From the NCBI GenBank assembly GCA_945787325.1, contig CALZHP010000003.1, positions 6,070 through 70,069 of the forward strand: a stretch of 64,000 bases of DNA, in the 5' to 3' direction. The DNA comes from an uncultured Desulfobulbaceae bacterium (lineage in GTDB: Bacteria > Desulfobacterota > Desulfobulbia > Desulfobulbales > BM004). Made by a program: the position numbers and the translations under genes. Each line of letters opens with the position of its first letter. The stretch's first letter is position 1. Shown piece after piece: positions 4,816 to 64,000 of this stretch. The notes beneath the pieces are model-generated. The model was not told the origin of the DNA. It saw only the letters and a list, made by a program, of their open reading frames with translations, and made no database searches.

Positions 4816-4818
4816 GAA

Positions 4819-9247: not shown

Positions 9248-9976
9248 TCAGATCTCCACTTTAACCAGACCGGGAGCCACCACTTTACATAGAATCTCTT
9301 TCTGGGAGTTGGTATTACGAACTTTTATCCAGGCACCTTTTTTACCGTTCCTGCGGGCAACACCCTTGGCTGTAACAGTAAGGGCGCCTTTACGAACAAC
9401 CATTGAAACAATATCACCGCGCTTGACCAGGGATGGGAACTCAACGGATGTACGATCTATCGGTTTGCCCAGTCTTAAGGAGCGCTTTACTTTTTTGCCG
9501 ATAAGTTCTTTGGGATCAAAGCTCGGGTTGCGCAAAGGGACTATATCCATTCGAACGAGATTGATATCACGCCTGTTAATTATTGATCCACGCTGCAGGT
9601 CTCCAGAAGCAACTGCAACCGGTGCAATTGCTTCCAACTTGGCGCGTACAGCTATATTTTTTTCAACCCTACCATCTACCCTGAAAATCAGAGTGAAGCG
9701 GTGGCTTTTCAGGATAGCCGGGTCCGATGGAATAACTTCGATGTCGAGTTTTCCCTTCGGCAGTGTGAAAGGTTTCGCGAGCTGGATATTCCTTAAACGT
9801 ATTTCTGCCTGTGGAAGAAAGCTTTTGTTTCTTTCGATATAATCAGATAGAACTCTATCTATGCTATTCTGGTCTATCGTTACTGAATTGTCCGTGCTGT
9901 TTACCGCTTTACCAAATGCGGTTGAATTGATACACAGAACCAGAAGCAGAGTGATAGACCATTTGTAGATTTTCAC
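9248..9976 (-). CDS. flgA: P-ring assembly chaperone FlgA
   Basis: It has a signal peptide and a C-terminal SAF-like segment ...VKRGDIVSMVVRKGALTVTAKGVARRNGKKGAWIKVRNTNSQKEILCKVVAPGLVKV. It sits in the flgA slot. Confidence 0.8.
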   Translation of the reverse strand: MKIYKWSITLLLVLCINSTAFGKAVNSTDNSVTIDQNSIDRVLSDYIERNKSFLPQAEIRLRNIQLAKPFTLPKGKLDIEVIPSDPAILKSHRFTLIFRVDGRVEKNIAVRAKLEAIAPVAVASGDLQRGSIINRRDINLVRMDIVPLRNPSFDPKELIGKKVKRSLRLGKPIDRTSVEFPSLVKRGDIVSMVVRKGALTVTAKGVARRNGKKGAWIKVRNTNSQKEILCKVVAPGLVKVEI

Positions 9977-9986
9977 GATTTATTCA

Positions 9987-10772
9987 CTACAATAAGTTGT
10001 TTGTCATCTGGACCATTTCATCAGCTGTCTTAATGGCCTTCGAGTTAATTTCATACGCACGCTGGCCGGCAATCATATTGACCATTTCTTCCATGATACT
10101 TACGTTTGAACCTTCCAGGAATCCCTGTGAGATCACTCCAAGGCCACTCTCGCCAGGAACACCTGTTACAGGTGCCCCTGAAGCCGGTGTTTCTGAGTAC
10201 AGGTTTCTGCCCATACTGAAAAGTCCGGCCGGGTTGCTGAAGTTAGCAAGTTCAATCGTGCCGACTTGTGTACTGGAGGTACTGCCATCTAGATGGACAC
10301 TTACAGTGCCGTCTTCACCGATTGAAATTTTTGTGGCGTTTTCCGGGATAATGATTTCGGGGGCAAGAGGGTAGCCGTCCGAGGTTACCACTCTGCCGGT
10401 TCCATCTTTTTTGAAAGCTCCTGATCGTGTGTAAGCTGATTCGCCATTGGGAAGCTGAACTTGGAAGAGACCTGGACCTTCAATGCCAAGGTCGAGTTCG
10501 TTACTTGTCTGCTGGAAATCGCCAACTGTAAAAACCTTCTGGACCGCAGCGGGCCTGGTACCAAGACCGACCTGGATTCCAGTAGGAGACTCTGTTTCAG
10601 AAGATGTTGGGCTGCCGGGGGCTTTAGTGCTCTGATAGAGCAACTCCTGAAAGTCTGCCCGGCTTTTTTTGAAACCTGCAGTATTGACATTTGCCAGGTT
10701 GTTGGCAATCACATCCATGTTAAGCTGTTGTGATTCCATTCCTGTTGCTGCTGTCCATAATGCTCTGATCAT
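9987..10772 (-). CDS. flgG: Distal rod protein FlgG
   Basis: [42 protein letters not shown]... and C-terminal ...[35 protein letters not shown]. Confidence 0.94.
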
Positions 10773-10824
10773 AATAATTCTCCTTTGTTATACTGCTGTC
10801 GCTGCGAAGTCCTCAGCTATTTAA

Positions 10825-11553
10825 TTATCCTAAGGACCCAAGTTCGTCGAGTTTGGACCCAATAGCTCCATAGGACTTTATTATTTTCTGGTATGATTCA
10901 AATGTGCGCAGGCTGTCCATCATCAAGGCCATTTCCTGCATCATATTTACGTTTGATGCTTCAAGATGTCCTTGTTGAACACGCGGTTGATCTACTTCCT
11001 GGTCATTTATGTCATCGGGTAAAGAAAACATCCCGTGTTCCTTTTTTTTCAGCAGAGATGTATCTTCAACAGTATATATAGCCAGCTGATCAACCTGACT
11101 GTCGCCGTCAAAGATCCTTCCCTCTTCGTCAACATCAACATCTGCGTTTGGAAGTGTGATGGGGCTGTTACCGGAATTCAAAACTGTCAGATCTGTTGTG
11201 GTTTTCAGGGTGCTGTCACCATCAAGTACGAAGTTCCCCGATCGCGTATAAAAGATATTGCCATCATCGTCCTGCACCTTGAAAAAACCCTCACCGTTGA
11301 TTGAAAAATCAAGATTTCTGCCAGTCGGCTGGCTTGCGCCCTGACTGAAGTCCACATAGTTATTGCGAGCGCGGGTGAAATTTATACCTTTTGCGCTAGT
11401 ATTTTGTTTAGCATCGTTAAGAACAGATTCAAAAATCAGACGTTCTTTTTTGAATCCGAAAGTAGTGGCGTTAGTCAGGTTATTAGTAATTATGTCCAGC
11501 GTTTTCATTTTTGCCAGATTGCCTGATAACGCGCTATACATTCCTGAACTCAT
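10825..11553 (-). CDS. flgF: Proximal rod protein FlgF
   Basis: It has rod-family termini (…ITNNLTNATTFGFKKERLIFES…; …LEASNVNMMQEMALMMDSLRTFESYQKIIKS). It is located upstream of flgG. Confidence 0.85.
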   Translation of the reverse strand: MSSGMYSALSGNLAKMKTLDIITNNLTNATTFGFKKERLIFESVLNDAKQNTSAKGINFTRARNNYVDFSQGASQPTGRNLDFSINGEGFFKVQDDDGNIFYTRSGNFVLDGDSTLKTTTDLTVLNSGNSPITLPNADVDVDEEGRIFDGDSQVDQLAIYTVEDTSLLKKKEHGMFSLPDDINDQEVDQPRVQQGHLEASNVNMMQEMALMMDSLRTFESYQKIIKSYGAIGSKLDELGSLG

Positions 11554-11589
11554 TTTTGCTCCCCTGTTATATTATCCCTATACAAATAC

Positions 11590-11616
11590 TTGTCGGTCTT
11601 TTGGTTAATAACTTTA
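11590..11616 (-). promoter_or_regulatory. Possible sigma-28-like promoter upstream of flgF
   Basis: The minus-strand sequence reads TAAA-gttattaaccaaaag-ACCGACAA (15-nt spacing). The -10 is weaker, and rod genes are not usually sigma-28 dependent, so this is tentative. Confidence 0.3.
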
Positions 11617-11622
11617 ACTGTT

Positions 11623-12021
11623 TTACATTGCTACGTTGCTGGCAACGTTTGACAAATTAATGAGTTGTCCAGCTTCTCTGGTAGAAATATTGAGAACCAT
11701 AGCGATTTCTTCGGTGTCCATCCCATGACTGATAAGTGATTTAATATGACGATATTTTGAAGGTATTTCACTGTTCCGGTTACTGCTCATGAGCTGTGTT
11801 TTAATCTCTGCTTCATCAAGTTGCGCATGGAAGCTGTTATCTTTTTCACAGGAATTGGATGTGTTAGTGTTCAGGCATTGCAGAGCCTTATCAAGCTCCA
11901 GAACAAGCTTGGCGATTACCCGTTGCTGCAGATTCAACCTGCGGCGTAAAAAGAGGTAGGTCATCAGTAGTAAACTGCAAAAGCTGACGGAAGTGATAAG
12001 TGTCATATTCAGAGGTGTCAT
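11623..12021 (-). CDS. Small membrane-anchored protein with C-terminal helix-turn-helix-like segment (DUF2802-like by recollection)
   Basis: One N-terminal TM helix (LITSVSFCSLLLMTYLFL). The C-terminal ...SLISHGMDTEEIAMVLNISTREAGQLINL resembles a sigma-70 region-4/LuxR-type HTH. It lies immediately downstream of fliA. Confidence 0.5.
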   Translation of the reverse strand: MTPLNMTLITSVSFCSLLLMTYLFLRRRLNLQQRVIAKLVLELDKALQCLNTNTSNSCEKDNSFHAQLDEAEIKTQLMSSNRNSEIPSKYRHIKSLISHGMDTEEIAMVLNISTREAGQLINLSNVASNVAM

Positions 12022-12075
12022 ATCTTATGTACCTGTATGTTTTAACTTCCTGCCTGTTTGTATATGGATGAATTT

Positions 12076-12837
12076 TTAGTAAGATTCATTTCTATTTTTT
12101 AAAGCCTTTTTTATTTTCACTTTGAGCTTCATGAGTGCTTGGCTGTGAAGCTGTGAGACACGCCCTTCAGACACTTCCAGTATCCCAGCTATCTCTTTCT
12201 GATTGAGCTCTTCGTAGTAGTATAATGAAATGACCAACCGTTCTTTTTCGGAAAGTTTTCTGAGATGAGCGGCAATATCCTTAGTCAGTTCTTTTGATTC
12301 AATCCTTTCTGTAGGGGCTTTACCGTTTTCGTCCATCAGACTTTCCAAGAAATCACGGCCGTTTCTTGACCTATCGAGTGTTTCATGCAGGCTGACACAT
12401 CCCAGGTGACAGACTTGTCCCATCAACTTATGATAGTCTTCGAGATTCATATCCATAGCAGCAGCCATTTCTTCCTCCTCTGGAGAACGCCCCAGGGTTT
12501 TTTCCAGCCAGTCCATTGTTTTTGTCAGCCTGGAATGTTTTTCCCTTAAAGACCTTGAGAACCAGTCCATTTTTCGTACTTCATCAAAAATTGCTCCTCG
12601 TATACGATGCTCTGCAAAGGTTTTGAAAAGTATACCCTTGGATTCATCAAAACGGCTTGCAGCATCCAGCAATCCCATCATGGCAGCGCTTGCCATGTCG
12701 TCTCGTGTAAGAAAAGAAGGAACTTGAGGAACCATCCTTTCAACAATGCACTCAATCATCGGCATGTGACTCTTTATGAGAGCGTTTCTGTCATCTTCCT
12801 GATTTGTGTAGGGATTGTATTGTCTGTTCATCTTCAA
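12076..12837 (-). CDS. fliA: Flagellar sigma factor sigma-28 (FliA/SigD)
   Basis: It has sigma-70 family regions 2-4 (…DDMASAAMMGLLDAASRFDESKGILFKTFAEHRIRGAIFDEVRK…; …LNQKEIAGILEVSEGRVSQLHSQALMKLK). It follows flhG with a 4-bp overlap. Confidence 0.9.
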   Translation of the reverse strand: MKMNRQYNPYTNQEDDRNALIKSHMPMIECIVERMVPQVPSFLTRDDMASAAMMGLLDAASRFDESKGILFKTFAEHRIRGAIFDEVRKMDWFSRSLREKHSRLTKTMDWLEKTLGRSPEEEEMAAAMDMNLEDYHKLMGQVCHLGCVSLHETLDRSRNGRDFLESLMDENGKAPTERIESKELTKDIAAHLRKLSEKERLVISLYYYEELNQKEIAGILEVSEGRVSQLHSQALMKLKVKIKKALKNRNESY

Positions 12838-13757
12838 GTCTCACTGCCAAATGTTAGAAGGCTCTTCCAGAAAAACTGGACAGTTCCTTTTGGCATTTTC
12901 TCACGTTTTTCAGATGTAATACTTCCTGCCAGTGATTCGAAAGCTGCACTTGCTTTGGTTGCCGGGTAAAGATCAACCATGGCTTTCTGCTGTCTGATAG
13001 ATTCATGCATACGACGGTCAAAAGGAATGCCCCCTAGAAAGTCAATGGATATGTCCAGGTAGTGATCGGAAACCATTGTAAGTTTTCTAAAAACATTGAG
13101 GGCTTCATCCTCATCTTTTACCGAATTGACTATGAGGCAGAATTTCTTTTCATGATATTGCGTGGATAACAGTTTCATCAGGGCATAAGCGTCGGTAATT
13201 GCTGTCGGTTCAGGGGAAGTGACTACCAAAATGTCCTGGGCGGCTGTGTTGAAAAAAGTAACGTTTTCCGAGATACCAGCTTCGGTATCAATCAGAACGA
13301 CGTCGAAATAATCATGAAGTGTGTCAAGTTCTTCCATCAGCCGAATTTTATGGTCGGATTCAAGACGCGTAAATTTCTGAACACCCGAACCTGCAGGCAA
13401 TATTTTTATGCCATAGGGGCCTTCGACGATAATTGAGTTAAGGTCCTGTTCGCCGTTAAAGAAATGATTTAGGTTGTATTTAGGAGTTAGCCCGAAAACG
13501 ACATCAATATTGGCAAGTCCGAGATCGGCATCAATTATCAGGATTTTTTTGCCGGTTTTTGCAAGAGATATTGCTACATTTGCTACAACAGCTGTTTTGC
13601 CGACTCCTCCCTTGCCACTGGTGACTGAAAGAACCCACGAAGCCTTACCATTATCACCCGTCATTAATGCTGGAGACGTTTTTTGTCCGTTTAATGTCCG
13701 AAGAGTTTCAGCCTGATCAACAGGTTCTGCTGCAATATTAGCCATTTTGTTACCCAT
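12834..13757 (-). CDS. flhG: MinD/ParA-type ATPase FlhG (FleN/YlxH), flagellar number regulator
   Basis: It has the N-terminal FlhF-activating motif DQAETLR and the deviant Walker A SGKGGVGKT. It also has a C-terminal amphipathic tail, ...VQFFWKSLLTF. Confidence 0.88.
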   Translation of the reverse strand: MGNKMANIAAEPVDQAETLRTLNGQKTSPALMTGDNGKASWVLSVTSGKGGVGKTAVVANVAISLAKTGKKILIIDADLGLANIDVVFGLTPKYNLNHFFNGEQDLNSIIVEGPYGIKILPAGSGVQKFTRLESDHKIRLMEELDTLHDYFDVVLIDTEAGISENVTFFNTAAQDILVVTSPEPTAITDAYALMKLLSTQYHEKKFCLIVNSVKDEDEALNVFRKLTMVSDHYLDISIDFLGGIPFDRRMHESIRQQKAMVDLYPATKASAAFESLAGSITSEKREKMPKGTVQFFWKSLLTFGSET

Positions 13758-15036
13758 GTCGTTTACCCATGATGAGATCTGATATTTTCTTCGGGTTTGC
13801 CAGCATCAAATCTTCAGGAACTTTCTGGCCGTTAGTTAAATATGATATTGGATATTCATTATTGTTGTTGACACTGAGCAGATTGCCCAGTGTTGCACAT
13901 TCATCAATTTTACTGAAAACAATATTGTGAACAGGAAGTATACTGAAGCGATTAACGGAGTTTTCAAGGTTGTCTTCGCTATTGGTCGCAGATAAAACGA
14001 GATGATTTTCTATACCGAATTCCGGGCGAAGAAATGATGACAGCTCCTTTATGCTCATTTCATCCCTTGGGCTGCGCCCGGCAGTATCAATAAGGATAAG
14101 TTTTTTGTCATCGTGCTTGTTAAGCACATTTTCCATCTGGTCCGGTGAAATTACTACCTCTACCGGAAGGTTCATTATTTCCCCGTAAACTTTGAGCTGC
14201 TCTACGGCGGCTATCCTGTAAGTGTCTATAGTGACTAAAGCCACATTTTTATCAAAGTGTTTGAGGTAGCTTGCAGCAAGTTTTGCAACTGTTGTTGTTT
14301 TTCCTACACCTGTAGGTCCTATGAGTGCCAGACGTTTTGATTCTTTGCTGCTGACCTTTATAGGTCCACTTACCTTGAATTGACGTGAAATTTCATTATT
14401 GAAAAATGTTTTTAGAGTCTTTTTATCAGCAACTTGCTGGATGGATAGTTTTTTTGCAGCCGATCGCATCAGGTTCTCAGCAGCTCTCCCTCTGATGCCA
14501 TATGCAGCAAGTTCATCAAAACCCGATGCAAGCCAGTTACTATCAGTGATGTTGCTGGACTGTACATCTTTGTAAGAAGTGAAATCATCTACAATTTTTA
14601 TATCAGGTTTTTGGTGACTCGATATCTCTTCCATTGCATTATTGAAAAGGCCCTTGAGCTCCTTAATTTCATCTTGAAATTTGTCAAAATCAAGGGTTTC
14701 AACGCTCTGCCTGAGTTCTTTTACCTCTTCTTCGAGGGGGTCGATAACTTTGCGGTTTCGCCAGAGTTGTTCATAAGTGAGATTATCATCTATAGTCCTG
14801 ATATTTTCAGAATCTGAATGAATAGAAGTACTTTCTTGCGGAACGCGAGGGGCAGAACCTTTGTCAACATCGTTATCTATGGCAGCCGTTACTTCGACGA
14901 CCTGCTTGCTAAGTAAACCCTTACCTCTTTTGCGTACAGTTCTTGTCGATAGTATCAGAGCGTCTGGCCCGAGGGTCTCTTTCACTTTGCGAAGAGTGGA
15001 TTTTATGTCTTCAGATTCAAAAACTTTAACTTGCAT
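13750..15036 (-). CDS. flhF: SRP-type GTPase FlhF
   Basis: G1 GPTGVGKTTT, DTAGR, and an NG-domain layout, located between flhA and flhG. Confidence 0.88.
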   Translation of the reverse strand: MQVKVFESEDIKSTLRKVKETLGPDALILSTRTVRKRGKGLLSKQVVEVTAAIDNDVDKGSAPRVPQESTSIHSDSENIRTIDDNLTYEQLWRNRKVIDPLEEEVKELRQSVETLDFDKFQDEIKELKGLFNNAMEEISSHQKPDIKIVDDFTSYKDVQSSNITDSNWLASGFDELAAYGIRGRAAENLMRSAAKKLSIQQVADKKTLKTFFNNEISRQFKVSGPIKVSSKESKRLALIGPTGVGKTTTVAKLAASYLKHFDKNVALVTIDTYRIAAVEQLKVYGEIMNLPVEVVISPDQMENVLNKHDDKKLILIDTAGRSPRDEMSIKELSSFLRPEFGIENHLVLSATNSEDNLENSVNRFSILPVHNIVFSKIDECATLGNLLSVNNNNEYPISYLTNGQKVPEDLMLANPKKISDLIMGKRHG

Positions 15037-17107
15037 GGAGTTTCACCGTTCCTAATGATCTGACTTTAAGGTGTGGAGCGATCTCATTATGAGAAATAAC
15101 TGACAAGTTAGGGAGGTAACGTTCGGTCAATCTTTTGACATGAGGTCGGATAGTTGGCGTGCAAAGTAGAACCGGCTGCATTGAACCATCAAAGTTGTTC
15201 ATGCTTTGAGATAGGCCGTCGAGAATAGACTGGGCTTTCTGAGGGTCTATGGCTAAATAACTGCCTTGTCCCTTGTTTTGAACAGCCTGTTGAATGGTCT
15301 CCTCCACTTCTCTGTCAAATGTAAGCAGTGGTAGTATGTTGTCGCCCTGAGTGTATTTTGAGCTTATCTGCCGGGACATAGCGTGCCTGACGTGCTCGGT
15401 AAGTACATCAACTTCCTGAGTTGAAGGTGCCAGATCAGCCAGGGTTTCTAGAATCGACCTGAGATCCCTAATAGATACATCTTCTCTTAATAAGTTTTGT
15501 AGTACCTGCATAACTGTTCCAAGGCTTAAAAGGTTTGGCACCAGCTCTTCTACTAGCTTCGGATACGTCTTTGCAAGGTTATCTAGCAAGTTCTGTGCCT
15601 CTTGCCTTCCAAGTAGTTCATGAGCATGTTGATTTATTATCTCGCTGATATGAGTGGCCATTACTGTCGTACAATCAACAACTGTATAACCCGCTATCTG
15701 GGCGCGTTCTTTCTTGTCTTCATTGATCCAGATGGCGGGAAGACCAAAGGCTGGTTCTACTGTTTCGACTCCTTTGAGATTTTCAGTTGCAGTGCCGGGG
15801 TTCATTGCAAGGAAGTGGCCGGGAAGCATTTCTCCGTCAGCTAAAGGAACACCTTTCAGTGAAATACGGTATCCGTTAGGTTTGAGCTCAAGATTATCTT
15901 TTATATGTATTGGAGGGACTATAAACCCGCTGTTCATTGCAAACTGTTTTCGTATGGATCGGATCCGATTCAATAGCTCGCCGTTCTGAGCTGCGTCAAC
16001 AAATGGAACCAGGCCGTATCCTACTTCAAGCTCAAGCAGGTCGATGGCAAGATCCTGGTTGAAATCTTCTTCAGCAGGTGGCAACATTGGTTGTTCCTCT
16101 GATAATGTTTCTTCTTCAGTATTTTTTTTGCGGTCCAGATGATAAGCAAGATAAGCTGTCATCCCAGAAAGAAGGAGAAATGGGATAAATGGCAGGCCAG
16201 GTATAAGAGCGAAAATGAGAAGAACAGTAGAAACAACCCATATTGCCTGCGGGTGAAGTGAGAATTGAGTTTTAAGCTCGGAGGCAAAGTCTGAAGTACC
16301 CGCAGTTCTTGTAACCAGAAGGCCTGCAGTTGTTGAAATGATGAGAGCAGGTATCTGCCCCACGAGACCGTCACCAACAGTTAGAATTGTATAATTGGCT
16401 GCTGCTTCTCTCACCGGCATCCCTTTTTGCAACACACCAATTACAAATCCGGCACCAATATTTATAAAGGTAATAATAATACCGGCAATGGCATCTCCTT
16501 TTACAAACTTGCTGGCACCGTCCATGGCGCCGTGAAATCCGGCTTCATCGGATATCTCTTTGCGCCGCATGCGAGCTTCATCATCATCAATGAGTCCGGC
16601 ATTCAAATCTGCGTCGATAGCCATCTGTTTTCCGGGCATGGCGTCGAGGGTAAATCGTGCTGCAACTTCGGCTATTCTTCCTGCGCCTTTTGTGATAACT
16701 AGAAAATTTATAACGACGAGAATTATAAAAACTACAAGACCGACGACATAGTTGCCCCCCACTACAAACTGTCCGAAAGACTGAATAACAGTACCTGCGG
16801 CACTGGGTCCTTCATCACCACGGAGCAGAATGAGCCTGGTGGAAGCTACATTCAGTGATAATCTGAAAAGAGTTGTTGCAAGAAGAACTGACGGAAATAT
16901 AGCAAAGTCTAGAGCGCGAACGGTGTATAGACTTATGATAAGAATTAATAGTGCAATAGTGATATTGAGTGAAAGAAAAACGTCCAGGACTAGTGGAGGT
17001 AAAGGTATTATCATCACCATGAGAATGGTGACAAGCCCCAGTGCAACAAGGATGTCGCTTCTGATTATATTTTCAGACCATTTTTTCTGAGCAAGAGCCT
17101 GTATCAT
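15026..17107 (-). CDS. flhA: Flagellar export gate protein FlhA
   Basis: At 693 aa, it has an N-terminal polytopic domain with ...FPSVLLATTLFRLSLNVASTRLIL... and the FHIPEP region. Confidence 0.96.
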   Translation of the reverse strand: MIQALAQKKWSENIIRSDILVALGLVTILMVMIIPLPPLVLDVFLSLNITIALLILIISLYTVRALDFAIFPSVLLATTLFRLSLNVASTRLILLRGDEGPSAAGTVIQSFGQFVVGGNYVVGLVVFIILVVINFLVITKGAGRIAEVAARFTLDAMPGKQMAIDADLNAGLIDDDEARMRRKEISDEAGFHGAMDGASKFVKGDAIAGIIITFINIGAGFVIGVLQKGMPVREAAANYTILTVGDGLVGQIPALIISTTAGLLVTRTAGTSDFASELKTQFSLHPQAIWVVSTVLLIFALIPGLPFIPFLLLSGMTAYLAYHLDRKKNTEEETLSEEQPMLPPAEEDFNQDLAIDLLELEVGYGLVPFVDAAQNGELLNRIRSIRKQFAMNSGFIVPPIHIKDNLELKPNGYRISLKGVPLADGEMLPGHFLAMNPGTATENLKGVETVEPAFGLPAIWINEDKKERAQIAGYTVVDCTTVMATHISEIINQHAHELLGRQEAQNLLDNLAKTYPKLVEELVPNLLSLGTVMQVLQNLLREDVSIRDLRSILETLADLAPSTQEVDVLTEHVRHAMSRQISSKYTQGDNILPLLTFDREVEETIQQAVQNKGQGSYLAIDPQKAQSILDGLSQSMNNFDGSMQPVLLCTPTIRPHVKRLTERYLPNLSVISHNEIAPHLKVRSLGTVKLHAS

Positions 17108-54583: not shown

Positions 54584-55771
54584 ATGAATATATATAAATT
54601 GCCCAGGAAAAATACATCATTTTGGTTGTTTACAATAATTATAGGATTATTGCTATATTGTCCGAATTCCTTTGCCACAGAAGCAATATCTGGTGGGCCT
54701 GAAAACCTTGAGGATATGGAGTGGTTGTCCAGTGAAGAGAGCTCCGGTGGCGTTGAGAATTGGACTGCTAAGGATGATACTGTATTGACAGCAGACCCAT
54801 TGGAGCCTGTCAATCGCCTGTTCTTTCACTTCAATGATAAACTATACTACTGGGTACTTAAACCAGTCGCCACTGTTTACTCCAAGGTGATTCCCAAAGA
54901 CGTGAGGGGTAGTATTCGAAATTGCTTTGATAATCTGCTAACCCCCGTTCGTGTTGTAAATAATTTATTGCAAGGAAAGGTGAAAGGTACTGGTGTTGAG
55001 CTATCACGGTTTGTTATTAATTCAACATTGGGAATATATGGATTTGGCGACCCGGCAGTAGAATTTGGCCTTGAACCTCAGAGTGAGGATTTCGGACAAA
55101 CATTAGGTACTTATGGGATCGGGCGAGGTGTTTACATTCACTGGCCTGTACTTGGACCATCAAATATTCGTGATACTATAGGTTTGGTTGCTGATTCTTT
55201 TCTGGACCCACTTGCATATATTGTTTCCAGTGAGACTTTTGCAACTGCTGCAGTATATGGTGGTAAAAAAGTAAACGAAATTTCTTTACAGCTGGGAGAC
55301 TACGAACTTTTTAAAGAGACTTCCCTTGATCCTTATACCGCGGTACGTGATGCTTATCAGCAGTACAGAGAAGGACAGATTAAAGATTTATCAAGTAAAG
55401 AGAAGGACAATTCCAAACATGCTAGAGCTGCAGTAAAAATGGGCCTTGTAGCAGGAAATTATATGTTAAATGGCGGGAGGTCTGGATTTCCACAATATCA
55501 TGAAGATGATTCGATAGTAGGTGAAAGTGCGGTCGATGAAAGTACATATTTTATTCAAGTAGGTACTTTTTCTGACCCAGACCAAGTTGATAAAGTGATA
55601 GATGAATTAAGCTCGATTAAAATTAATCCGGTTGTTAAAGTATATGAAAGAGAAGATTATTCGATCTTTGGTGTGCAGGTTGCAGCCGGTACTAATTTTT
55701 ATATGGCAAAAAAACAGGAAATACAGTTGGCGGCGGCTGGTTACAATGGTGCTTTTGTCGTCACCAGGTAA
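54584..55771 (+). CDS. mlaA: MlaA/VacJ family lipoprotein fused to a C-terminal SPOR domain
   Basis: The VacJ core reads ...DPLEPVNRLFFHFNDKLYYWVLKPVATVYSKVIP...VRNCFDNLLTPVRVVNNLLQGK... The C-terminal ...YFIQVGTFSDPDQVDKVIDELSS...IFGVQVAAGTNFYMAKKQEIQLAAAGYNGAFVV is SPOR-like. Confidence 0.8.
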   Translation: MNIYKLPRKNTSFWLFTIIIGLLLYCPNSFATEAISGGPENLEDMEWLSSEESSGGVENWTAKDDTVLTADPLEPVNRLFFHFNDKLYYWVLKPVATVYSKVIPKDVRGSIRNCFDNLLTPVRVVNNLLQGKVKGTGVELSRFVINSTLGIYGFGDPAVEFGLEPQSEDFGQTLGTYGIGRGVYIHWPVLGPSNIRDTIGLVADSFLDPLAYIVSSETFATAAVYGGKKVNEISLQLGDYELFKETSLDPYTAVRDAYQQYREGQIKDLSSKEKDNSKHARAAVKMGLVAGNYMLNGGRSGFPQYHEDDSIVGESAVDESTYFIQVGTFSDPDQVDKVIDELSSIKINPVVKVYEREDYSIFGVQVAAGTNFYMAKKQEIQLAAAGYNGAFVVTR

Positions 55772-56905: not shown

Positions 56906-56958
56906 TTAGTAATTTAATTATCTGAATAGTCTCAGTTAATATATTTTTATTACGATAT

Positions 56959-56997
56959 GCCCCGTTTCCTTATGATCAGGAACGGGGCATTGTTTTT
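56959..56997 (+). terminator. Rho-independent terminator ending the mla cluster
   Basis: GCCCCGTTTCC-(9 nt)-GGAACGGGGC followed by ATTGTTTTT. Confidence 0.75.
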
Positions 56998-57189
56998 CAG
57001 ACATTGGTAGATCAAATATTCATAATTTCATGTATCCAACTGTTTCGTATAGAAAAAATAATATTATTAAATATAAAAGCTGATGAATTTATTCAATGTC
57101 AAAGTGTTAATCATACCCGGTAAGTTTAAATGTGTTGATAAAAGGCTGATTTTAGGTGATAGAGTTAATGGCTCTGTAAGTAAAATGAC

Positions 57190-57219
57190 TTGACAAGATT
57201 GGATGATTTTTCTTATAGT
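57190..57219 (+). promoter_or_regulatory. Sigma-70-like promoter for rpmF-plsX-fab operon
   Basis: TTGACA-N18-TATAGT, about 100 nt upstream of rpmF. Confidence 0.45.
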
Positions 57220-57322
57220 CAACGGCTATTTAAAAAATATTTTATTTAATGTTCACTACTGAAAAAGTATGCTTTCAGTAGAATAAAAAATCAACAATTA
57301 TAAGTTGTTAATGGAGGATATA

Positions 57323-57514: not shown

Positions 57515-58573
57515 GTGACGGTGCATATTGCCCTGGATGTTATGGGCGGTGATCGAGGCCCCTTGGAGCTGGTAGCTGGGGCAGTGCAAGCCGTGCGCGA
57601 TTTCAGCCTGGAAGTAACACTTCTGGGAGATGAGGGTCAGATTAAGCAGGCTCTCAAACATCATTCAATTTCAGATTCCAGACTTCATACAGTCCACACC
57701 TCTCAGACTATTTCCATGATAGAACCCCCTTTTGAGGCGGTTCGTAAGAAGAGGGACGCTTCTGTTGTAGTGGCGTTTGAATTACTCAAGAAGGGTGAAG
57801 TGGACGCTGTTGTCAGCGCCGGAAATTCAGGTGCGACAATGGCTGCTGCAATAAGGAAGCTAGGCCGATTGAAACAGATTTCACGGCCTGGAATTGCGAG
57901 TATTTTCCCAACCCAGAAAAATCCCCTGGTGATGATGGATGTGGGTGCAAATGTTGATTGCCGTCCACAGCATCTGTTCCAGTTTGGGGTTATGGCGTCA
58001 GCGTTTTCAACAGTTTTATTAGGTATTGATAAACCGAGAATAGGGTTGTTGAGTATAGGAGAGGAAGGGGGGAAGGGAAACCTGTTAGTTAAGAATTCCC
58101 ATGAACTTTTTCAGAAAAGCTCACTTAATTTTATTGGCAATGTTGAAGGCAGGGATACTTTCCTGGGTGATGTTGACGTCATAGTTTGTGATGGGTTTGT
58201 CGGCAATGTGTGCTTGAAGGTAAGCGAAGGGCTTGCTGAAACAGTTCTTGCTATGCTTGGCGAAGAAATATCAAAAAGTTTTTCTGCAAAGATGGGATAC
58301 CTGCTGGCAAAACAGGCGTTTGCCAACTTTAAAAAACGTGTGGACTATGCCGAATATGGAGGAGCACCTCTCCTGGGTTTGAATGGTACCGGTATAGTTT
58401 GCCATGGTCGTTCCAATGCAAAGGCTATAAAAAATGCCATCAAGGTTGCAATTGAAATGGTTCGAAATAAAGTAAATGATCATATCATAGAATTATTGCC
58501 CGAAGACAACTTCACAGATGTTAATGGGCACCAGCAAGAGGAAGATGCTGAACTTCCGGTTGAAGGCTCATGA
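57515..58573 (+). CDS. plsX: Phosphate acyltransferase PlsX
   Basis: ...IALDVMGGDRGP...VDAVVSAGNSGATMAAA... GTG start. Confidence 0.93.
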   Translation: MTVHIALDVMGGDRGPLELVAGAVQAVRDFSLEVTLLGDEGQIKQALKHHSISDSRLHTVHTSQTISMIEPPFEAVRKKRDASVVVAFELLKKGEVDAVVSAGNSGATMAAAIRKLGRLKQISRPGIASIFPTQKNPLVMMDVGANVDCRPQHLFQFGVMASAFSTVLLGIDKPRIGLLSIGEEGGKGNLLVKNSHELFQKSSLNFIGNVEGRDTFLGDVDVIVCDGFVGNVCLKVSEGLAETVLAMLGEEISKSFSAKMGYLLAKQAFANFKKRVDYAEYGGAPLLGLNGTGIVCHGRSNAKAIKNAIKVAIEMVRNKVNDHIIELLPEDNFTDVNGHQQEEDAELPVEGS

Positions 58574-59568
58574 ACAGGGCGGTAATCATTGGCACAGGTT
58601 CCTGTTTACCCGAGCGGGTTTTGACGAATGCTGATCTTGAGCAGATAGTCGATACTTCGGATGAATGGATTACCACCCGAACAGGCATCAGTACCAGGCG
58701 CATAGCTGAGAGAGATGAGAGAACCTCCGCCCTGGCTACTAAAGCAGCACGCGAAGCACTAAGCATGGCTAATGTTTCTCCGAAGGAGTTGGACCTGATC
58801 TTTCTTGGTACAATTACCTCCGATATGGCAATGCCTTCCTGTGCCTGTCTTGTCCAGAAAGAACTCGGGGCGGTGAATGCTGCAGCCATGGATCTAAACG
58901 CTGCATGTTCTGGGTTTGTCTATGGTCTTGATATTGCTGAGAAGTATATTAAGAGCGACCCTTCGATGAAAATTCTTGTGATTGGCGCTGAAACCCTTTC
59001 AACGAGGACAAACTGGAAAGATCGTAATACATGTGTTTTGTTTGGAGATGGGGCTGGCGCGAGTGTTCTAACAGGTAGTAATAACGGAAGTGGTATTCTT
59101 TCCAGCAGGTTATATTCTGACGGCAGTCTTTGGCAGTTGCTCAGCATGGAAAGTGCACCACGACAGGTTTGCCCGGTACTTAACGACAATCCTGCTGATG
59201 CTGACAAGCAACATGACGGTTCATATATTAAGATGGTGGGTAAAGATGTTTTCAGGTATGCCGTGCGCTCGATGGAGCAAGCAGTTTTAAGCCAGCTCGA
59301 AAAAGAAGGTGTTTCCATCAATGATGTTAACCTGATGATACCTCATCAGGCAAATATACGTATTTTGCGGAGTTTGGTGGAAAAGCTCAACATTCCAATT
59401 GAAAAAGTATTCATTACTGTATCTAAATATGGTAATACATCTGCGGCGAGTATTCCGATTTGTATAGATGAAGCAAACCGATCCGGGAGACTTACTGAAG
59501 GAGATTTAGTCTTATTGTGTGTGTTCGGAGGTGGATTTACCTGGGGTGTAACTCTCATCAGATGGTAA
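58570..59568 (+). CDS. fabH: 3-oxoacyl-ACP synthase III FabH
   Basis: ...IGTGSCLPERVLTNADLEQIVDTSDEWITTRTGI..., active-site Cys context LNAACSGF, and ...HQANIRIL..., ...GNTSAASIP. Confidence 0.93.
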   Translation: MNRAVIIGTGSCLPERVLTNADLEQIVDTSDEWITTRTGISTRRIAERDERTSALATKAAREALSMANVSPKELDLIFLGTITSDMAMPSCACLVQKELGAVNAAAMDLNAACSGFVYGLDIAEKYIKSDPSMKILVIGAETLSTRTNWKDRNTCVLFGDGAGASVLTGSNNGSGILSSRLYSDGSLWQLLSMESAPRQVCPVLNDNPADADKQHDGSYIKMVGKDVFRYAVRSMEQAVLSQLEKEGVSINDVNLMIPHQANIRILRSLVEKLNIPIEKVFITVSKYGNTSAASIPICIDEANRSGRLTEGDLVLLCVFGGGFTWGVTLIRW

Positions 59569-59659
59569 CCATTTAATTCACGAATCTTTAATATTGACTT
59601 TAATATACTGTAAACGTTAAAAAAATGTAAACTGATGGCTAAAAGCCAGAGGAGAGACA

Positions 59660-60808
59660 GTGGATTATTTTTTAACCGAAGAACAACAGATGATTGTTGA
59701 GGTCGCCCAGCAGATTACCGATGAAAAAATTATTCCTCAGCGGGCAGAACTTGACGAAAAAGAAGAATTTGCTACAGAAATTCTGAAAGATATTGCCAAG
59801 GCGGATCTGTTCGGGCTCTATATCCCTGAAGAATATGGTGGGTATGGAGGTGGCTGCTTTGAGGTAGTACTGGCCCTGGAACAATTTGGACGGGGATGCG
59901 TTGCTGTAGCGACTAGTTTTGCCGCCAGTGCGCTCGGTGCGTATCCAATTCTGTTGTCCGGAAGTAAAGAAATGAAACAGAAGTATCTGCCTGATGTCGC
60001 CAGTGGTAGCATGAAGGCGGCTTTTGCCCTCACTGAGGCGAATGCTGGGAGTGATGCATCGGGAATCCAGACCACAGCGGTGCTTGATGGTGATGAGTGG
60101 GTCCTGAACGGTACTAAGCAATGGATTACCAATGCTGGGGAAGCACAGATTTATTCAATTGTTGCTATTACAGATAAAAGCAAGGGAGCACGTGGTGCTT
60201 CCATGTTTGTAGTCGAAGATACAGATCCGGGATTTTCTTACGGACCCAAAGAGAAAAAAATGGGTATCAGGGCGTCTGCTACCCGGGAATTGATATTCAA
60301 GGACTGTCGTATCCCAAAGGATCGTCTAATCGGCCGCCAGGGTATGGGTTTCATTACGGTCATGAAAACTTTGGATCTGTCTCGACCCGGTATAGCAATA
60401 TTAGGTGTTGGTCTTGGCCAGGCAGCCTTGGATGAATCCGTTACATATGCAAAGCAAAGGGTTCAGTTCGGCAAGCCGATCATTTCATTCCAGGCCATTC
60501 AACATATGCTTGCCGATATGGCAATTCAGGTTGAAGCTTCCCGGGCACTTGTATACGCAGCCGCTAAGCATATTGCAGCTCACCAGAAAGATATGTCAAA
60601 AGCTTCTTCCATGTGTAAAGTGTTTGCCACCGACATGGCAATGAAAGTTACTACAGATGCCGTACAGGTCCTTGCAGGGTATGGCTACATGCGCGAGTAC
60701 CCGGTAGAAAAAATGATGCGTGACGCAAAAATCCTGCAGATCTATGAAGGTACAAACCAGATCCAGCGGAATGTAGTTGGCCAGGAACTGAACAAAGAAT
60801 ACACCTAG
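59660..60808 (+). CDS. Acyl-CoA dehydrogenase (short-chain/butyryl-CoA dehydrogenase-like)
   Basis: ...FALTEANAGSDASGIQTTA...GTKQWITNAG... and the catalytic-base context ...AKILQIYEGTNQIQRNVV. GTG start. Confidence 0.9.
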   Translation: MDYFLTEEQQMIVEVAQQITDEKIIPQRAELDEKEEFATEILKDIAKADLFGLYIPEEYGGYGGGCFEVVLALEQFGRGCVAVATSFAASALGAYPILLSGSKEMKQKYLPDVASGSMKAAFALTEANAGSDASGIQTTAVLDGDEWVLNGTKQWITNAGEAQIYSIVAITDKSKGARGASMFVVEDTDPGFSYGPKEKKMGIRASATRELIFKDCRIPKDRLIGRQGMGFITVMKTLDLSRPGIAILGVGLGQAALDESVTYAKQRVQFGKPIISFQAIQHMLADMAIQVEASRALVYAAAKHIAAHQKDMSKASSMCKVFATDMAMKVTTDAVQVLAGYGYMREYPVEKMMRDAKILQIYEGTNQIQRNVVGQELNKEYT

Positions 60809-60822
60809 GAAGTCTAACTGTT

Positions 60823-61602
60823 ATGAATATTATTGTATGTGTAAAACAAGTTCCTGATGCAAAGGATGTTCGGTTGGACCCTAAGACCAATACCCTCTCC
60901 AGAGAAGGCGTGGAGAGCATAATGAATCCTTATGACCGCCATGCTCTGGAAGCAGCAGTTCAGCTTAAGGAAAACTATGGAGGCACTGTGACAGTTGTCA
61001 GTATGGGGCCGCCTCAAGCGGAAGAAGTCTTACGGGAAGCAGTTTCATGTGGTGCCGATGAGGCCGTGCTTGTTTCAGACCGGGCCTTTGCCGGAGCCGA
61101 CACCTGGGCAACTACCTACACCTTAATGAAGGCAATCAAAAAAATAGGTACTTTCGACCTCATTATATGCGGGAAACAGGCCATCGATGGTGACACAGCT
61201 CAGGTAGGCCCTGGCCTTGCACATAGACTTAATATCCCATTTGTGACCTGTATCAGAAATATAACCAATTGTGAGGATTCCCTTCTGAAGGCTGAACGCC
61301 TCATGGATGACGGTTATGATGTGCTTGAGATTCAACTTCCTGCTCTTCTTACCGTAGTTAAAGATATAAATGAGCCTCGTGTCCCTTCGTTGAAGGGCAA
61401 GATGAAAGCGAAGAAGATATCAATTACCTCTATGTCTGCTGAAGACATTGGCGCTAATCCTGAGCAAATAGGCTTGAACGGGTCAACAACACAGGTAGTT
61501 CGAGTCTTTTCTCCGGAACCCAGAGGCGAAAAAACGATGCTCACCGGTTCTGTCGCAGAACAGGTTGAACAGTTAATCGAAAAACTGGAAGCCATTCAAT
61601 AA
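60823..61602 (+). CDS. etfB: Electron transfer flavoprotein beta subunit EtfB
   Basis: MNIIVCVKQVPD...NPYDRHALEAAVQLKE... Confidence 0.9.
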   Translation: MNIIVCVKQVPDAKDVRLDPKTNTLSREGVESIMNPYDRHALEAAVQLKENYGGTVTVVSMGPPQAEEVLREAVSCGADEAVLVSDRAFAGADTWATTYTLMKAIKKIGTFDLIICGKQAIDGDTAQVGPGLAHRLNIPFVTCIRNITNCEDSLLKAERLMDDGYDVLEIQLPALLTVVKDINEPRVPSLKGKMKAKKISITSMSAEDIGANPEQIGLNGSTTQVVRVFSPEPRGEKTMLTGSVAEQVEQLIEKLEAIQ

Positions 61603-61608
61603 AAAGCT

Positions 61609-62802
61609 ATGTTGCAGATTAATATTGATGCCTGTATAGGTTGCGGTTTATGTGAGGAAGAGTGCACTTACGAGGCGATTTCGGTTGTCGATGGAATTGC
61701 TGAGGTTAATGATAAGTGCACCCTCTGCGGATCTTGTGTCGATGTTTGCGAAGTTGAAGCACTTCACATAGAGCGTGAAGAAAAGCAAGTCCAATCTGAT
61801 TTTGGCGATTGGTCTGGTGTCTGTGTTTTCGCTGAACACAGAAATGGCAGGATTGCGCCGGTGACTTTTGAACTCCTTGGCATTGGGCGTCAACTTGCAG
61901 ATGATTTGGAAGTCAAACTATCCGCAGTCCTCTTGGGCTCAGACCTGTCTGACAAAGCTTCAAAATTGATAGCCTTTGGCGCCGATACCGTCTACCAGGT
62001 TGATGATACTGCTCTTGAAGATTTTACAGATGATGCATATGGCAATGTTTTCGAAGACATTGTTCGTGAGCACAAGCCCGAGATTGTCCTTGCCGGGGCA
62101 ACAGCTATCGGACGTTCATTTATCCCCCAGGTGGCCACAGCCTTGGAAACAGGGCTTACTGCCGACTGCACGGAACTCGCAATCCGTAAGGAAGACCGAA
62201 CGCTTCTGCAAACCAGACCCGCGTTTGGTGGCAATGTAATGGCAACTATTGAGTGCCCATACAGCAGGCCCCAGATGGCCACTGTAAGACCTATGGTCAT
62301 GAAAAGCCTTCCTGAAGATCAGGGTAGAAAGGGTGAGATCATTTCGTATACACCGAAACCGGAAAGGCTGCAGTCCAGAGTTAAGGTCTTGAACAGTGTG
62401 AAAGAGGACAGGGACCAGATAAATATAACTGAAGCAGAAATAATAGTTTCAGGTGGCAGAGGTCTTGATGATGAGAAAGGATTTGCGCTCATAAGAGAAC
62501 TTGCAGATGCGCTTGGAGGTGCGGTCGGTGCCTCAAGGGCTGCTGTAGATTCAGAATGGATTCCTTATCCGCACCAGGTTGGTCAAACTGGTAAAACAGT
62601 GTGCCCTAAACTGTATATTGCTTGTGGTATTTCCGGTGCAATTCAGCATATAGTTGGAATGCAATCTTCTGACATGATTGTAGCAATTAATAAAGATCCT
62701 GATGCACCAATATTTGATGTGGCCACTTGTGGTATTGTTGGAGACTTGTTTGAAGTGGTCCCAATGCTTACCGAAAAGATCAAGGAGAGGAAAACATCAT
62801 GA
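61609..62802 (+). CDS. etfA: Electron transfer flavoprotein alpha subunit EtfA with N-terminal 2x[4Fe-4S] ferredoxin domain
   Basis: Two CxxCxxCxxxC motifs (CIGCGLCEEEC, CTLCGSCVDVC), then the EtfA core with ...IVSGGRGL... and ...YIACGISGAIQHIVGM.... Confidence 0.9.
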   Translation: MLQINIDACIGCGLCEEECTYEAISVVDGIAEVNDKCTLCGSCVDVCEVEALHIEREEKQVQSDFGDWSGVCVFAEHRNGRIAPVTFELLGIGRQLADDLEVKLSAVLLGSDLSDKASKLIAFGADTVYQVDDTALEDFTDDAYGNVFEDIVREHKPEIVLAGATAIGRSFIPQVATALETGLTADCTELAIRKEDRTLLQTRPAFGGNVMATIECPYSRPQMATVRPMVMKSLPEDQGRKGEIISYTPKPERLQSRVKVLNSVKEDRDQINITEAEIIVSGGRGLDDEKGFALIRELADALGGAVGASRAAVDSEWIPYPHQVGQTGKTVCPKLYIACGISGAIQHIVGMQSSDMIVAINKDPDAPIFDVATCGIVGDLFEVVPMLTEKIKERKTS

Positions 62803-63545
62803 GTCTGGCTGGGAAAATCGCTATGATAACCGGCGGCAGCCGTGGGATTGGCCAGGCTGTCTGCTTGCGTTTGGCAGAAATGGGTGCGGAAGTAGTAGTC
62901 AATTATGTGAGTCGACCTGATGCTGCTGAAGAAACATTATCAGCAATTAAAGGCAATGGTGGTATCGCGCACCTGGCTAAATTCAACGTTGCAGATGCCG
63001 AAGAGGTCCAAGAGGTTTTTAAAAAAATAACCGCGGATCATGGTACTGTCGACATCCTGGTAAATAATGCCGGAATTACAAAAGACGGCCTGCTGGCAAC
63101 AATGAAAGAGGAAGCCTGGGACGATGTTCTTGATATAAATCTTAAGGGTGCTTTTAACTGTACCAAGGCTGCTTGTCGGGCTATGATGAAAAAGAGGTGG
63201 GGCCGGATTATTAATATATCATCGGTCGTCGGCGCTTCCGGAAATGCTGGGCAGGCGAATTATGCTGCAGCAAAAGCCGGTTTGATAGGATTTACGAAAT
63301 CTGCCGCCAGAGAGCTGGCTTCACGCGGAATTACCGTAAACAGTGTTGCTCCGGGGTATATTGATACGGATATGACCAGCGATCTTTCTGAAGCAGTTAA
63401 AGAAAAGATTTTGAGTGAAATTCCATTGGGTGTACTTGGCGAAGGCAAGGATATTGCCGGAGCCGTTGCATTTCTTTCTTCGGAAGACGGGAGATATGTG
63501 ACCGGTCAAGTCATACATGTCAATGGTGGAATGTACATGATTTAA
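62799..63545 (+). CDS. fabG: 3-oxoacyl-ACP reductase FabG
   Basis: TGGSRGIG..., NNAGIT..., and YAAAKAG (the YxxxK catalytic motif). It overlaps the etfA stop by 4 bp (ATGA). Confidence 0.93.
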   Translation: MSLAGKIAMITGGSRGIGQAVCLRLAEMGAEVVVNYVSRPDAAEETLSAIKGNGGIAHLAKFNVADAEEVQEVFKKITADHGTVDILVNNAGITKDGLLATMKEEAWDDVLDINLKGAFNCTKAACRAMMKKRWGRIINISSVVGASGNAGQANYAAAKAGLIGFTKSAARELASRGITVNSVAPGYIDTDMTSDLSEAVKEKILSEIPLGVLGEGKDIAGAVAFLSSEDGRYVTGQVIHVNGGMYMI

Positions 63546-63635: not shown

Positions 63636-63863
63636 ATGTCGGCAGAAGAAAAAGTTATCGGTATTATTGTAGAGCAATTAAGCGTAGAAAAAGACAAAGT
63701 TGTGCCAAGCGCTTCCTTTGTTGATGATTTAGGAGCAGATTCACTTGATCTCGTAGAGTTGATCATGGCTATGGAAGAAGCTTTTGACATTGAGATACCA
63801 GATGAGGTCGCTGAGAAAATTACTACCGTTAAAGACGCTATTGATCACGTCCAGGCAGCCTGA
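63636..63863 (+). CDS. acpP: Acyl carrier protein
   Basis: ...[30 protein letters not shown]... with the phosphopantetheine Ser in DSLD. Confidence 0.96.
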
Positions 63864-63986
63864 TATTTAAGATAAAAGAAGACGTTTTGCATGAATCGTC
63901 AGTTTTTTTATGGTTGTTCAATTTCTGTAATAACCACTCTCTGCAATGAATGGATATGTGTGTAAATGATTTCATGGGAGAACAGG

Positions 63987-63999
63987 CATGAATAGAAGA
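63987..63999 (+). CDS. fabF: Probable start of 3-oxoacyl-ACP synthase II (FabF), only the first 4 codons are in the window
   Basis: ATG AAT AGA AGA (MNRR), preceded by GGGAGA. FabF typically starts M-x-R-R-V-V-V-T-G and follows acpP. This call rests on position only. Confidence 0.4.
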
Positions 64000-64000
64000 G

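Follow-up and report, generated by a model that had tools for sequence, protein, structure and literature searches.

An acyl-CoA dehydrogenase/Etf triad conserved within the fatty-acid synthesis operon of Desulfobulbia and related Desulfobacterota: a candidate flavin-based enoyl reductase

The DNA considered here is a stretch of 64,000 nt from an uncultured Desulfobulbaceae bacterium (contig CALZHP010000003.1 of assembly GCA_945787325.1), which we refer to, at its full length, as the window. From 57.3 kb to the window end its plus strand carries an uninterrupted series of genes in the order rpmF-plsX-fabH-[ACAD-etfB-etfA]-fabG-acpP-(fabF start), that is, a cluster for type II fatty-acid synthesis (FAS II) that includes, between fabH and fabG, the genes for an acyl-CoA dehydrogenase (ACAD) and for both subunits of an electron-transferring flavoprotein (ETF, or Etf). 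These three genes, the triad, are our subject. The cluster opens with rpmF for ribosomal protein L32 (57305..57511; TIGR01031, 84 bits), whose true start is probably the ATG at 57323 (MALPKRR...), followed by plsX for phosphate acyltransferase (57515..58573; TIGR00182, 358 bits against a cutoff of 243) and fabH for β-ketoacyl-acyl carrier protein synthase III (KAS III; 58570..59568; NF006829, 424 bits against 249), the start of which overlaps the plsX stop by 4 nt. Downstream of the triad lie fabG for 3-oxoacyl-acyl carrier protein (ACP) reductase (62799..63545; TIGR01830, 341 bits against 298), acpP for ACP itself (63636..63863) and the first 13 nt, or four codons (MNRR...), of fabF, which runs off the window (63988..64000); in relatives, too, fabF is the gene after acpP. 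L32, PlsX, FabH, FabG and AcpP all score above their curated NCBIfam cutoffs.

The triad begins with a Bcd-like flavoprotein gene of 382 codons (ACAD, 59660..60808, plus strand), which starts with GTG behind a good ribosome-binding site and encodes all three ACAD Pfam domains. After 14 nt comes etfB for the small Etf subunit, of the bifurcating type according to its sequence matches (60823..61602), and after a further 6 nt etfA for the large subunit of 397 aa (61609..62802), which combines ETF (PF01012) and ETF_alpha (PF00766, the FAD-binding domain II) with an N-terminal ferredoxin-like domain (about 61609-61790) bearing two CxxCxxCxxxC motifs, as in CarE. The etfA stop and the fabG start overlap in the tetranucleotide ATGA at 62799..62802. 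On the other side, the triad is separated from fabH by an AT-rich spacer of 91 nt (59569..59659) that holds the ribosome-binding site AGAGGAGAG; no terminator-like site was found in this spacer or at the window's other junctions. A preliminary description, made by reading the sequence, had given this gene order, these gene identities and the ATGA overlap, and had taken them to imply co-transcription and translational coupling with the fatty-acid synthesis genes. Open reading frame (ORF) analysis, family searches and the sequence itself bear out the former in every particular, and the overlap, the short spacers and the lack of a terminator-like site support the latter, such that the triad is very probably transcribed as part of the FAS II operon and translationally coupled to it.

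The preliminary description had suggested checking whether the triad is maintained in relatives. A genome scan using one genome per species recovered 80 loci, to which two were added by exact look-up (82) and two more from a sister subclade (84); the loci of the scan come from Desulfobulbus, Desulfocapsa, Desulfopila, Desulforhopalus, Desulfogranum marinum DSM 2058, Candidatus Electrothrix, Candidatus Electronema and Desulfurivibrio, together with a few more distant metagenome-assembled genomes (MAGs). The order rpmF-plsX-fabH-ACAD-etfB-etfA-fabG-acpP is followed in 82/82 loci with zero violations, and the core from fabH through the triad to fabG is complete in 67 of them. Of the remaining 15, most are truncated at contig ends, two are frameshifted assemblies and one, L076, is without fabH. 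The sister subclade, reached by a second search with the most divergent member as query and labelled Dissulfuribacterales, Thermodesulfobacteria or Thermodesulfobacteriaceae, has the identical arrangement at two of its loci, down to the fabF-rpiB-glyA synteny that follows, and so the same order is found in all 84 related loci. The coupling of etfA to fabG is likewise general: the junction has a median length of -4 nt and the genes overlap in 48 of 72 loci. The fabH-ACAD spacers, with a median length of 26.5 nt, amount in many species to 11-20 nt with a ribosome-binding site alone; among the relatives, these mostly RBS-only spacers share no conserved regulatory motif.

Within this arrangement, the ACAD is the most conserved of six enzymes in 64/64 loci, although the loci were picked by similarity to the ACAD, which biases the ranking slightly in its favour. 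Median identities to the window proteins are 80% for ACAD, 71% for EtfB, 66% for FabG, 63% for both PlsX and EtfA and 60% for FabH, while AcpP (79%) is about equal to the ACAD. The ACAD diverges in step with its neighbours (Spearman rho 0.36-0.54), which fits vertical co-inheritance and a housekeeping role. Hundreds of ACAD homologues with 83-93% identity occur in Desulfobulbaceae and in Desulfobulbales MAGs, the closest being 93% identical, and look-ups by exact sequence found neither the window ACAD nor its EtfB on record; clustering at 50% identity no longer separates the fab-linked clade from other Bcd-like proteins, and at that level the closest full-length representative reaches 52% identity. 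Chance is far from sufficient to explain the arrangement. In at least three classes of Desulfobacterota, the triad belongs to the FAS II operon as an ancient, vertically inherited component under strong constraint. Recent horizontal acquisition was considered and rejected, since three classes have the arrangement, the composition is not deviant and divergence follows that of the neighbouring genes.

A few loci depart from the common picture in other respects. In L076 (8950-10001; MAG UBA8130), the ACAD gene comes immediately after plsX, and a short-chain dehydrogenase/reductase (SDR) gene whose product is 40% identical to FabG lies downstream; the region contains 12 N and may be an assembly artefact. 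Five loci of the Desulfurivibrionaceae type (L049, L050, L055, L056 and L062) have a GC-rich hairpin and T-run between fabH and the ACAD gene, possibly serving as an attenuator or as a terminator inside the operon; neither the window nor most other lineages have it. One contig, L059, is labelled 'Promethearchaeota archaeon' and carries a bacterial ACAD-etfBA-fabG-acpP cluster with 81% ACAD identity, and it is almost certainly a binning contaminant.

The preliminary description had placed the triad in the slot of fabD, the gene for malonyl-CoA:ACP transacylase, and had noted that the window contains no fabD. The latter statement stands: tblastn across the 64 kb with FabD, FabI, FabZ and FabA from E. 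coli, FabK from S. pneumoniae and FabD from Desulfobulbaceae located none of these, the only hit being a weak and expected match of FabI to FabG, an SDR. A similar statement on fabI, fabK, fabL and fabV holds for the 64-kb window, in which there is no FabI- or FabK-like gene. We cannot uphold the idea of a functional replacement, however, because relatives keep fabD in an ileS-lspA-fabD unit and never between fabH and fabG (0/82 loci). Two Desulfobulbaceae loci have the order ileS-lspA-fabD-mlaA, with fabD some 3 kb ahead of rpmF, and the FabD encoded there is a bona fide one, with the active-site motif GHSLGEYSA and 33% identity to E. coli FabD. Desulfobulbaceae and Desulfocapsaceae have many homologues 67-99% identical to it, among them one in the complete genome of Desulfocapsa sulfexigens DSM 10523, where the context is ileS-lspA-fabD-bioBAFGCD (bioB-bioA-bioF-bioG-bioC-bioD); a biotin route of this type relies on FAS II enzymes, enoyl-ACP reductase among them. 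The fabD regions concerned are 9501-16585 of locus L083 and 3834-5282 of locus L074. Loss of FabD, or its replacement by the triad, was therefore rejected. In Desulfovibrio vulgaris we take the order to be rpmF-plsX-fabH-fabG-acpP-fabF (DVU1209-DVU1204), with no fabD there; if this is right, the triad would have been inserted between fabH and fabG, not substituted for fabD. In the same organism, DVU1205 is an essential ACP and DVU2064 is regarded as the essential enoyl reductase of FAS (PMC10102598).

The three proteins have clear affinities. Among proteins of solved structure, the ACAD is matched best, and from end to end, by the butyryl-CoA dehydrogenase (Bcd) of Clostridioides difficile (5OL2_C; residues 7-377 to 6-376, E 3.6e-117), and somewhat less strongly by the Bcd of Acidaminococcus fermentans, that of Megasphaera elsdenii and CarC (4.8e-91 for the last). 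The catalytic glutamate, Glu376 in medium-chain acyl-CoA dehydrogenase (MCAD), corresponds to Glu363 in the window ACAD, within the motif YEGT, and it is invariant, together with Tyr362 and Gly364, in the ACADs of 81/81 relatives. The best solved match of EtfA is CarE (E 1.7e-125), with the ferredoxin domain included (the alignment begins at residue 6), followed by EtfA of Thermotoga maritima, A. fermentans and C. difficile at 1e-88 to 1e-94, whereas human and Paracoccus ETF reach 1e-45 to 1e-52. The pattern is repeated for EtfB, which matches CarD best (E 1.2e-81), with CarD, LctB and EtfB of T. maritima, C. difficile and A. fermentans spanning 1e-64 to 1e-81 and canonical ETF beta subunits 1e-24 to 1e-28. 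After CarD and CarE, the Etf subunits thus match best the other bifurcating Etfs of known structure (LctBC and those of T. maritima, A. fermentans and C. difficile), and canonical respiratory ETFs are weaker matches by 30 to 70 orders of magnitude. The EtfB segment GKQAIDGDTAQVGPGL aligns with CarD and LctB and is nearly invariant, and it is found, as is DGDTAQVGP, in 79/79 loci; the double CxxCxxCxxxC (8-Cys) domain is present in EtfA of the window and of 72 out of 74 relatives. To judge from these comparisons, EtfB is of the bifurcating type that binds a second FAD, not of the canonical AMP-binding type, and the two Etf subunits can be assigned to the reductive, electron-bifurcating group 2. 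Their best solved homologues are all biochemically proven bifurcating complexes that work reductively.

These affinities bear on one alternative, namely that the triad is a catabolic ACAD of beta-oxidation with its ETF, found in the fab cluster by chance and without a role in lipid synthesis. ACAD/ETF pairs are classically catabolic and source annotations name the ACAD homologues 'butyryl-CoA dehydrogenase', yet the Etf has the signature of group 2 rather than of a respiratory ETF, and there are neither genes for ETF:quinone oxidoreductase nor other beta-oxidation genes nearby. Chance would also have to account for a gene order and a stop/start coupling to fabG kept over three classes, and for an ACAD as strongly conserved as AcpP. 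Moreover, many of the hosts are not known as oxidisers of fatty acids; neither butyrate nor long-chain fatty acids are known to be oxidised by Desulfobulbus-type organisms or by cable bacteria, and a universally kept catabolic Bcd is therefore not expected in them. We consider this explanation very unlikely.

Enoyl reduction is the step that the operon otherwise lacks, it is needed in each elongation cycle, and it is the chemistry of Bcd/EtfAB and CarCDE; for these reasons we propose that the triad is the enoyl-ACP reductase (ENR) of FAS II. Put more fully, we suggest, with about even confidence, that type II fatty-acid synthesis has in the triad a dedicated enoyl-thioester reductase of the Bcd/EtfAB type, which depends on NADH and probably also reduces ferredoxin. 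The possibility of a flavin-based enoyl reductase for lipids had been raised in the preliminary description; nothing contradicts it and, given an Etf that appears to be of the reductive, bifurcating type, it is the most parsimonious reading. On this reading, the products of the operon would include KAS III, an ENR (the triad), ketoreductase, ACP and KAS II. There is a parallel for its position in Firmicutes operons that have fabK between fabH/acpP and fabD/fabG, as in the clusters of streptococci and clostridia, where fabK likewise stands beside fabH, fabG and acpP.

The reaction can be envisaged as follows. NADH would reduce the bifurcating FAD on EtfB, from which one electron, at high potential, would reach the ACAD flavin by way of the FAD bound to EtfA; two such rounds would convert a trans-2-enoyl-ACP (or enoyl-CoA) to the saturated acyl thioester. 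The other electron, at low potential, would travel through the two [4Fe-4S] clusters fused to EtfA and reduce ferredoxin. By analogy with Bcd-EtfAB and CarCDE, the net reaction would be 2 NADH + enoyl-thioester + 2 Fd(ox) -> 2 NAD+ + acyl-thioester + 2 Fd(red), where Fd is ferredoxin. For those two complexes, the literature gives 2 NADH + enoyl-CoA + 2 Fd(ox) -> 2 NAD+ + acyl-CoA + 2 Fd(red) (PMC5861303, PMC5691135). In vivo the triad would thus presumably run in the reductive direction and serve lipid synthesis, acting on ACP-bound rather than CoA-bound substrates, and the analogy suggests that it may indeed bifurcate electrons to ferredoxin.

By sequence, the triad is a complex of the Bcd/EtfAB type with a CarE-like ferredoxin extension, and it is the orthologue of no named system. 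With Bcd/EtfAB (C. difficile 5OL2, A. fermentans 4KPU/4L1F, M. elsdenii 1BUC) it shares the three-subunit composition and the catalytic glutamate. These complexes belong to butyrate fermenters and are encoded alongside crotonase, 3-hydroxybutyryl-CoA dehydrogenase and thiolase, whereas the triad belongs to sulfur-cycling Desulfobacterota and has the context rpmF-plsX-fabH...fabG-acpP-fabF, with no gene for thiolase, Hbd or Crt within 10 kb on either side in any locus; its EtfA has an additional N-terminal 2x[4Fe-4S] domain, and its proposed substrates are enoyl-ACPs of all chain lengths. CarCDE of Acetobacterium woodii (6FAH), the best solved match of both Etf subunits, has the same 8-Cys ferredoxin-like domain at the EtfA N-terminus, and this holds two [4Fe-4S] clusters and is regarded as an adaptor for the low-potential acceptor (PMC5861303). 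The ACAD is nevertheless closer to Bcd than to CarC, there are no genes for caffeate activation nearby, and the context is anabolic where that of CarCDE is respiratory.

Several points, given in this paragraph and the next, weigh against the proposed bifurcating FAS II enoyl reductase. The best NCBIfam match of all three subunits is to AcrABC (NF042972, NF042971 and NF042970), albeit well below the equivalog cutoffs (416 against 640, 244 against 475 and 373 against 600 bits). AcrABC of Clostridium propionicum also consists of an ACAD with EtfAB and also works reductively with NADH, in a different context; AcrA has no ferredoxin domain and its model covers residues 193-393 of the triad EtfA best. 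This acryloyl-CoA reductase is reportedly non-bifurcating. Furthermore, EtfA is without the N-terminal ferredoxin domain in two loci of the Dissulfuribacterales type (L082, 11909-12958, and L085, 11954-12979; 341-349 aa) and apparently in L074 (366 aa), all with unchanged operon position, from which it follows that the domain is not essential to function. Both the AcrABC match and the absence of the domain from some lineages would favour a variant of our proposal, in which the triad is still the FAS II ENR but NADH electrons pass through the Etf to the ACAD without reduction of ferredoxin, and the Fe-S domain is an internal relay or regulatory. We think this variant unlikely. All the sequence features of the bifurcating type are present and invariant, and absence of the domain is no argument against bifurcation because classical Bcd-EtfAB bifurcates without it; CarCDE, with the same fusion of ferredoxin domain and EtfA, does bifurcate (PMC5861303).

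The further points concern the substrate, the wider genome and the ranking. No sequence feature proves specificity for ACP over CoA, the ACAD being a typical Bcd-like enzyme with no extra domain. There are 39 clade-invariant differences between the fab-linked ACADs and C. difficile Bcd, but these clade-specific substitutions are not interpretable in terms of substrate. At the pocket positions of MCAD, Gln95 is replaced by Ala or Gly and Glu99 by Ala, which is compatible with a deep acyl pocket; however, such small residues are not diagnostic, because C. difficile Bcd is also small there. A canonical ENR in the genome would mean that the triad need not be one, and our search for FabI and FabK covered the window. 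To these should be added the slight bias in the conservation ranking mentioned above.

On the same sequence evidence, an enzyme working at the CoA level has to be weighed. The triad might be an enoyl-CoA reductase that supplies butyryl-CoA or longer primers to FabH, or part of a route resembling reversed beta-oxidation that feeds PlsX/PlsY or FAS II. Beyond the standard, Bcd-like character of the ACAD and the lack of a feature showing ACP use, this would suit the position of its gene directly after fabH, which encodes the only FAS II enzyme to take acyl-CoA. Yet translational coupling is to fabG and not to fabH; L076 lacks fabH and still has the triad-fabG-acpP unit; no thiolase, 3-hydroxyacyl-CoA dehydrogenase or crotonase accompanies the triad in any of the 84 loci; and an accessory role in priming would not account for an ACAD that surpasses FabH, FabG and PlsX in conservation. 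The supply of primers for FabH, offered as an alternative in the preliminary description, has gained no specific support, and a CoA-level function is in our judgement improbable. Use of ACP by an ACAD is plausible because carrier-protein-dependent enzymes of this fold exist: the acyl-ACP dehydrogenase MbtN (recognised through its family model) and the dehydrogenases of prolyl-ACP or prolyl-peptidyl carrier protein AnaB (4IRN) and PigA/RedW (6AF6) all accept phosphopantetheine-bound substrates. They are only distant from the triad ACAD (E 1e-44 to 1e-52; 69 bits against a cutoff of 700 for the MbtN model), and they are oxidative, do not partner with a bifurcating Etf and belong to secondary metabolism.

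A role on ACP substrates could also be of another kind, with a canonical ENR located elsewhere. The triad might act in anaerobic synthesis of unsaturated fatty acids, with the ACAD dehydrogenating a medium-chain acyl-ACP to the trans-2 form and isomerising this to cis-3, while electrons passed to the Etf and bifurcation ran in reverse, consuming reduced ferredoxin and making NADH. Embedding in the operon and conservation suit any FAS-linked role equally, the conserved glutamate abstracts an alpha-proton, some ACADs have intrinsic 2,3-enoyl isomerase activity, and monounsaturated fatty acids are abundant in Desulfobulbaceae. On the other hand, reverse bifurcation is a costly way to perform a step whose trans-2 substrate is already an intermediate of FAS, and the triad is kept in Thermodesulfobacteriaceae, whose lipids are mainly saturated or branched. 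The closest characterised homologues are all reductive, and we identified no feature specific to an isomerase. A precedent exists in FabX of Helicobacter pylori, a flavin and [4Fe-4S] acyl-ACP dehydrogenase-isomerase of FAS II in a host without FabA (PMC8626469), though FabX is a single, FMN-dependent member of the FabK/nitronate monooxygenase (NMO) family with no homology to ACAD or Etf. We regard such a function as quite improbable.

Returning to the triad as a FAS II enoyl reductase, it would catalyse the same proposed reaction, trans-2-enoyl-ACP to acyl-ACP with NADH, as FabI, FabL and FabV, which are of the SDR type, and FabK, which is an FMN-dependent TIM barrel. There is no kinship with these in sequence or fold: the triad is made up of three subunits, with three FADs and with Fe-S clusters, and its family matches are to ACAD, ETF and Fer4 only, with neither the SDR Rossmann fold and its Tyr-Lys pair nor the FMN NMO fold. 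To our knowledge, every ENR class described so far (FabI, FabK, FabL, FabV and minor SDR variants) works with NAD(P)H as a single subunit, and the triad, if it is an ENR, is a new class by fold. A wider claim can be framed on this basis, and we advance it only tentatively: that an unrecognised, Etf-dependent ENR class of ACAD fold replaces FabI/K/L/V in Desulfobulbia, including the cable bacteria, in Thermodesulfobacteria and in Dissulfuribacteria, and through bifurcation yields reduced ferredoxin in each elongation cycle. Canonical ENRs would then have been replaced and other ENRs would be absent from these organisms.

The surroundings of the cluster can be described briefly. Upstream of it, a Pfam scan covering almost every ORF of 150 aa or more found only flagellar, chemotaxis, sigma-54 regulator and Mla genes. 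Window positions 1-37636 carry a large flagellar regulon on the minus strand and 38151-64000 the che cluster, mla and fab on the plus strand, with divergence around 37.6-38.1 kb, the former part having a GC skew of about 0 and the latter one of +0.10 to +0.19. The MlaA lipoprotein of the window (54584-55771) has a C-terminal SPOR (peptidoglycan-binding) domain, the MlaA proteins called in related loci being shorter (260-277 aa). Between the gene for a cyclic nucleotide monophosphate (cNMP)-binding protein and rpmF there is an AT-rich, non-coding gap of 399 bp (56906-57304), at the place where 64 related loci encode YceD/DUF177; no remnant of this gene is detectable in the window. The gap holds a candidate operon promoter, the sigma-70-like TTGACA-18-TATAGT upstream of rpmF (57190..57219, plus strand; 11/12), which is the region's strongest match but a consensus match only, the number of sigma-70-like sites in the region being that expected from shuffled sequence. 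At the other end, a short hairpin and T-run (gacgttttgcatgaatcgtc agttttttt) lie between acpP and fabF (63864-63987); the acpP-fabF gap is the usual site of a partial termination that boosts the acpP transcript.

An ACAD/Etf unit in a fab operon seems to have escaped description: full-text literature searches on ENRs and fab operons, Etf, ACADs, electron bifurcation, Desulfobulbus, Desulfotalea and cable bacteria found none. On targeted reading, a 2022 review of ENR diversity mentions no ACAD or Etf type (PMC9260719), a historical review of flavin-based electron bifurcation mentions no link to fatty-acid synthesis (PMC5861303), and a paper on bifurcating Etf gene neighbourhoods describes no such unit in a fab operon; a supplement on cable bacteria contains no relevant terms. 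The components are of an already known type, and the triad would be a Bcd/EtfAB/CarCDE-type complex that was recruited into FAS II.

Bacterial fatty-acid synthesis has its pull step in enoyl-ACP reduction, which is also a validated target of antibiotics. With NADH this reduction is strongly exergonic (by roughly 300 mV), and this energy is normally lost. If the triad is indeed an enoyl reductase, it would represent both a new class of ENR and the first electron bifurcation in a core anabolic pathway, extending flavin-based electron bifurcation from catabolism to core biosynthesis. Energy-limited anaerobes, among them sulfate reducers, sulfur disproportionators and cable bacteria, would regain part of that energy as reduced ferredoxin, which would be available for CO2 fixation, pyruvate synthesis or Rnf-type ion pumping. 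The bookkeeping of NADH and ferredoxin, and the interpretation of lipid hydrogen isotopes, would change for a large and environmentally important clade, and the universal presence of 'butyryl-CoA dehydrogenase/Etf' genes in organisms that neither ferment to butyrate nor oxidise it would be explained.

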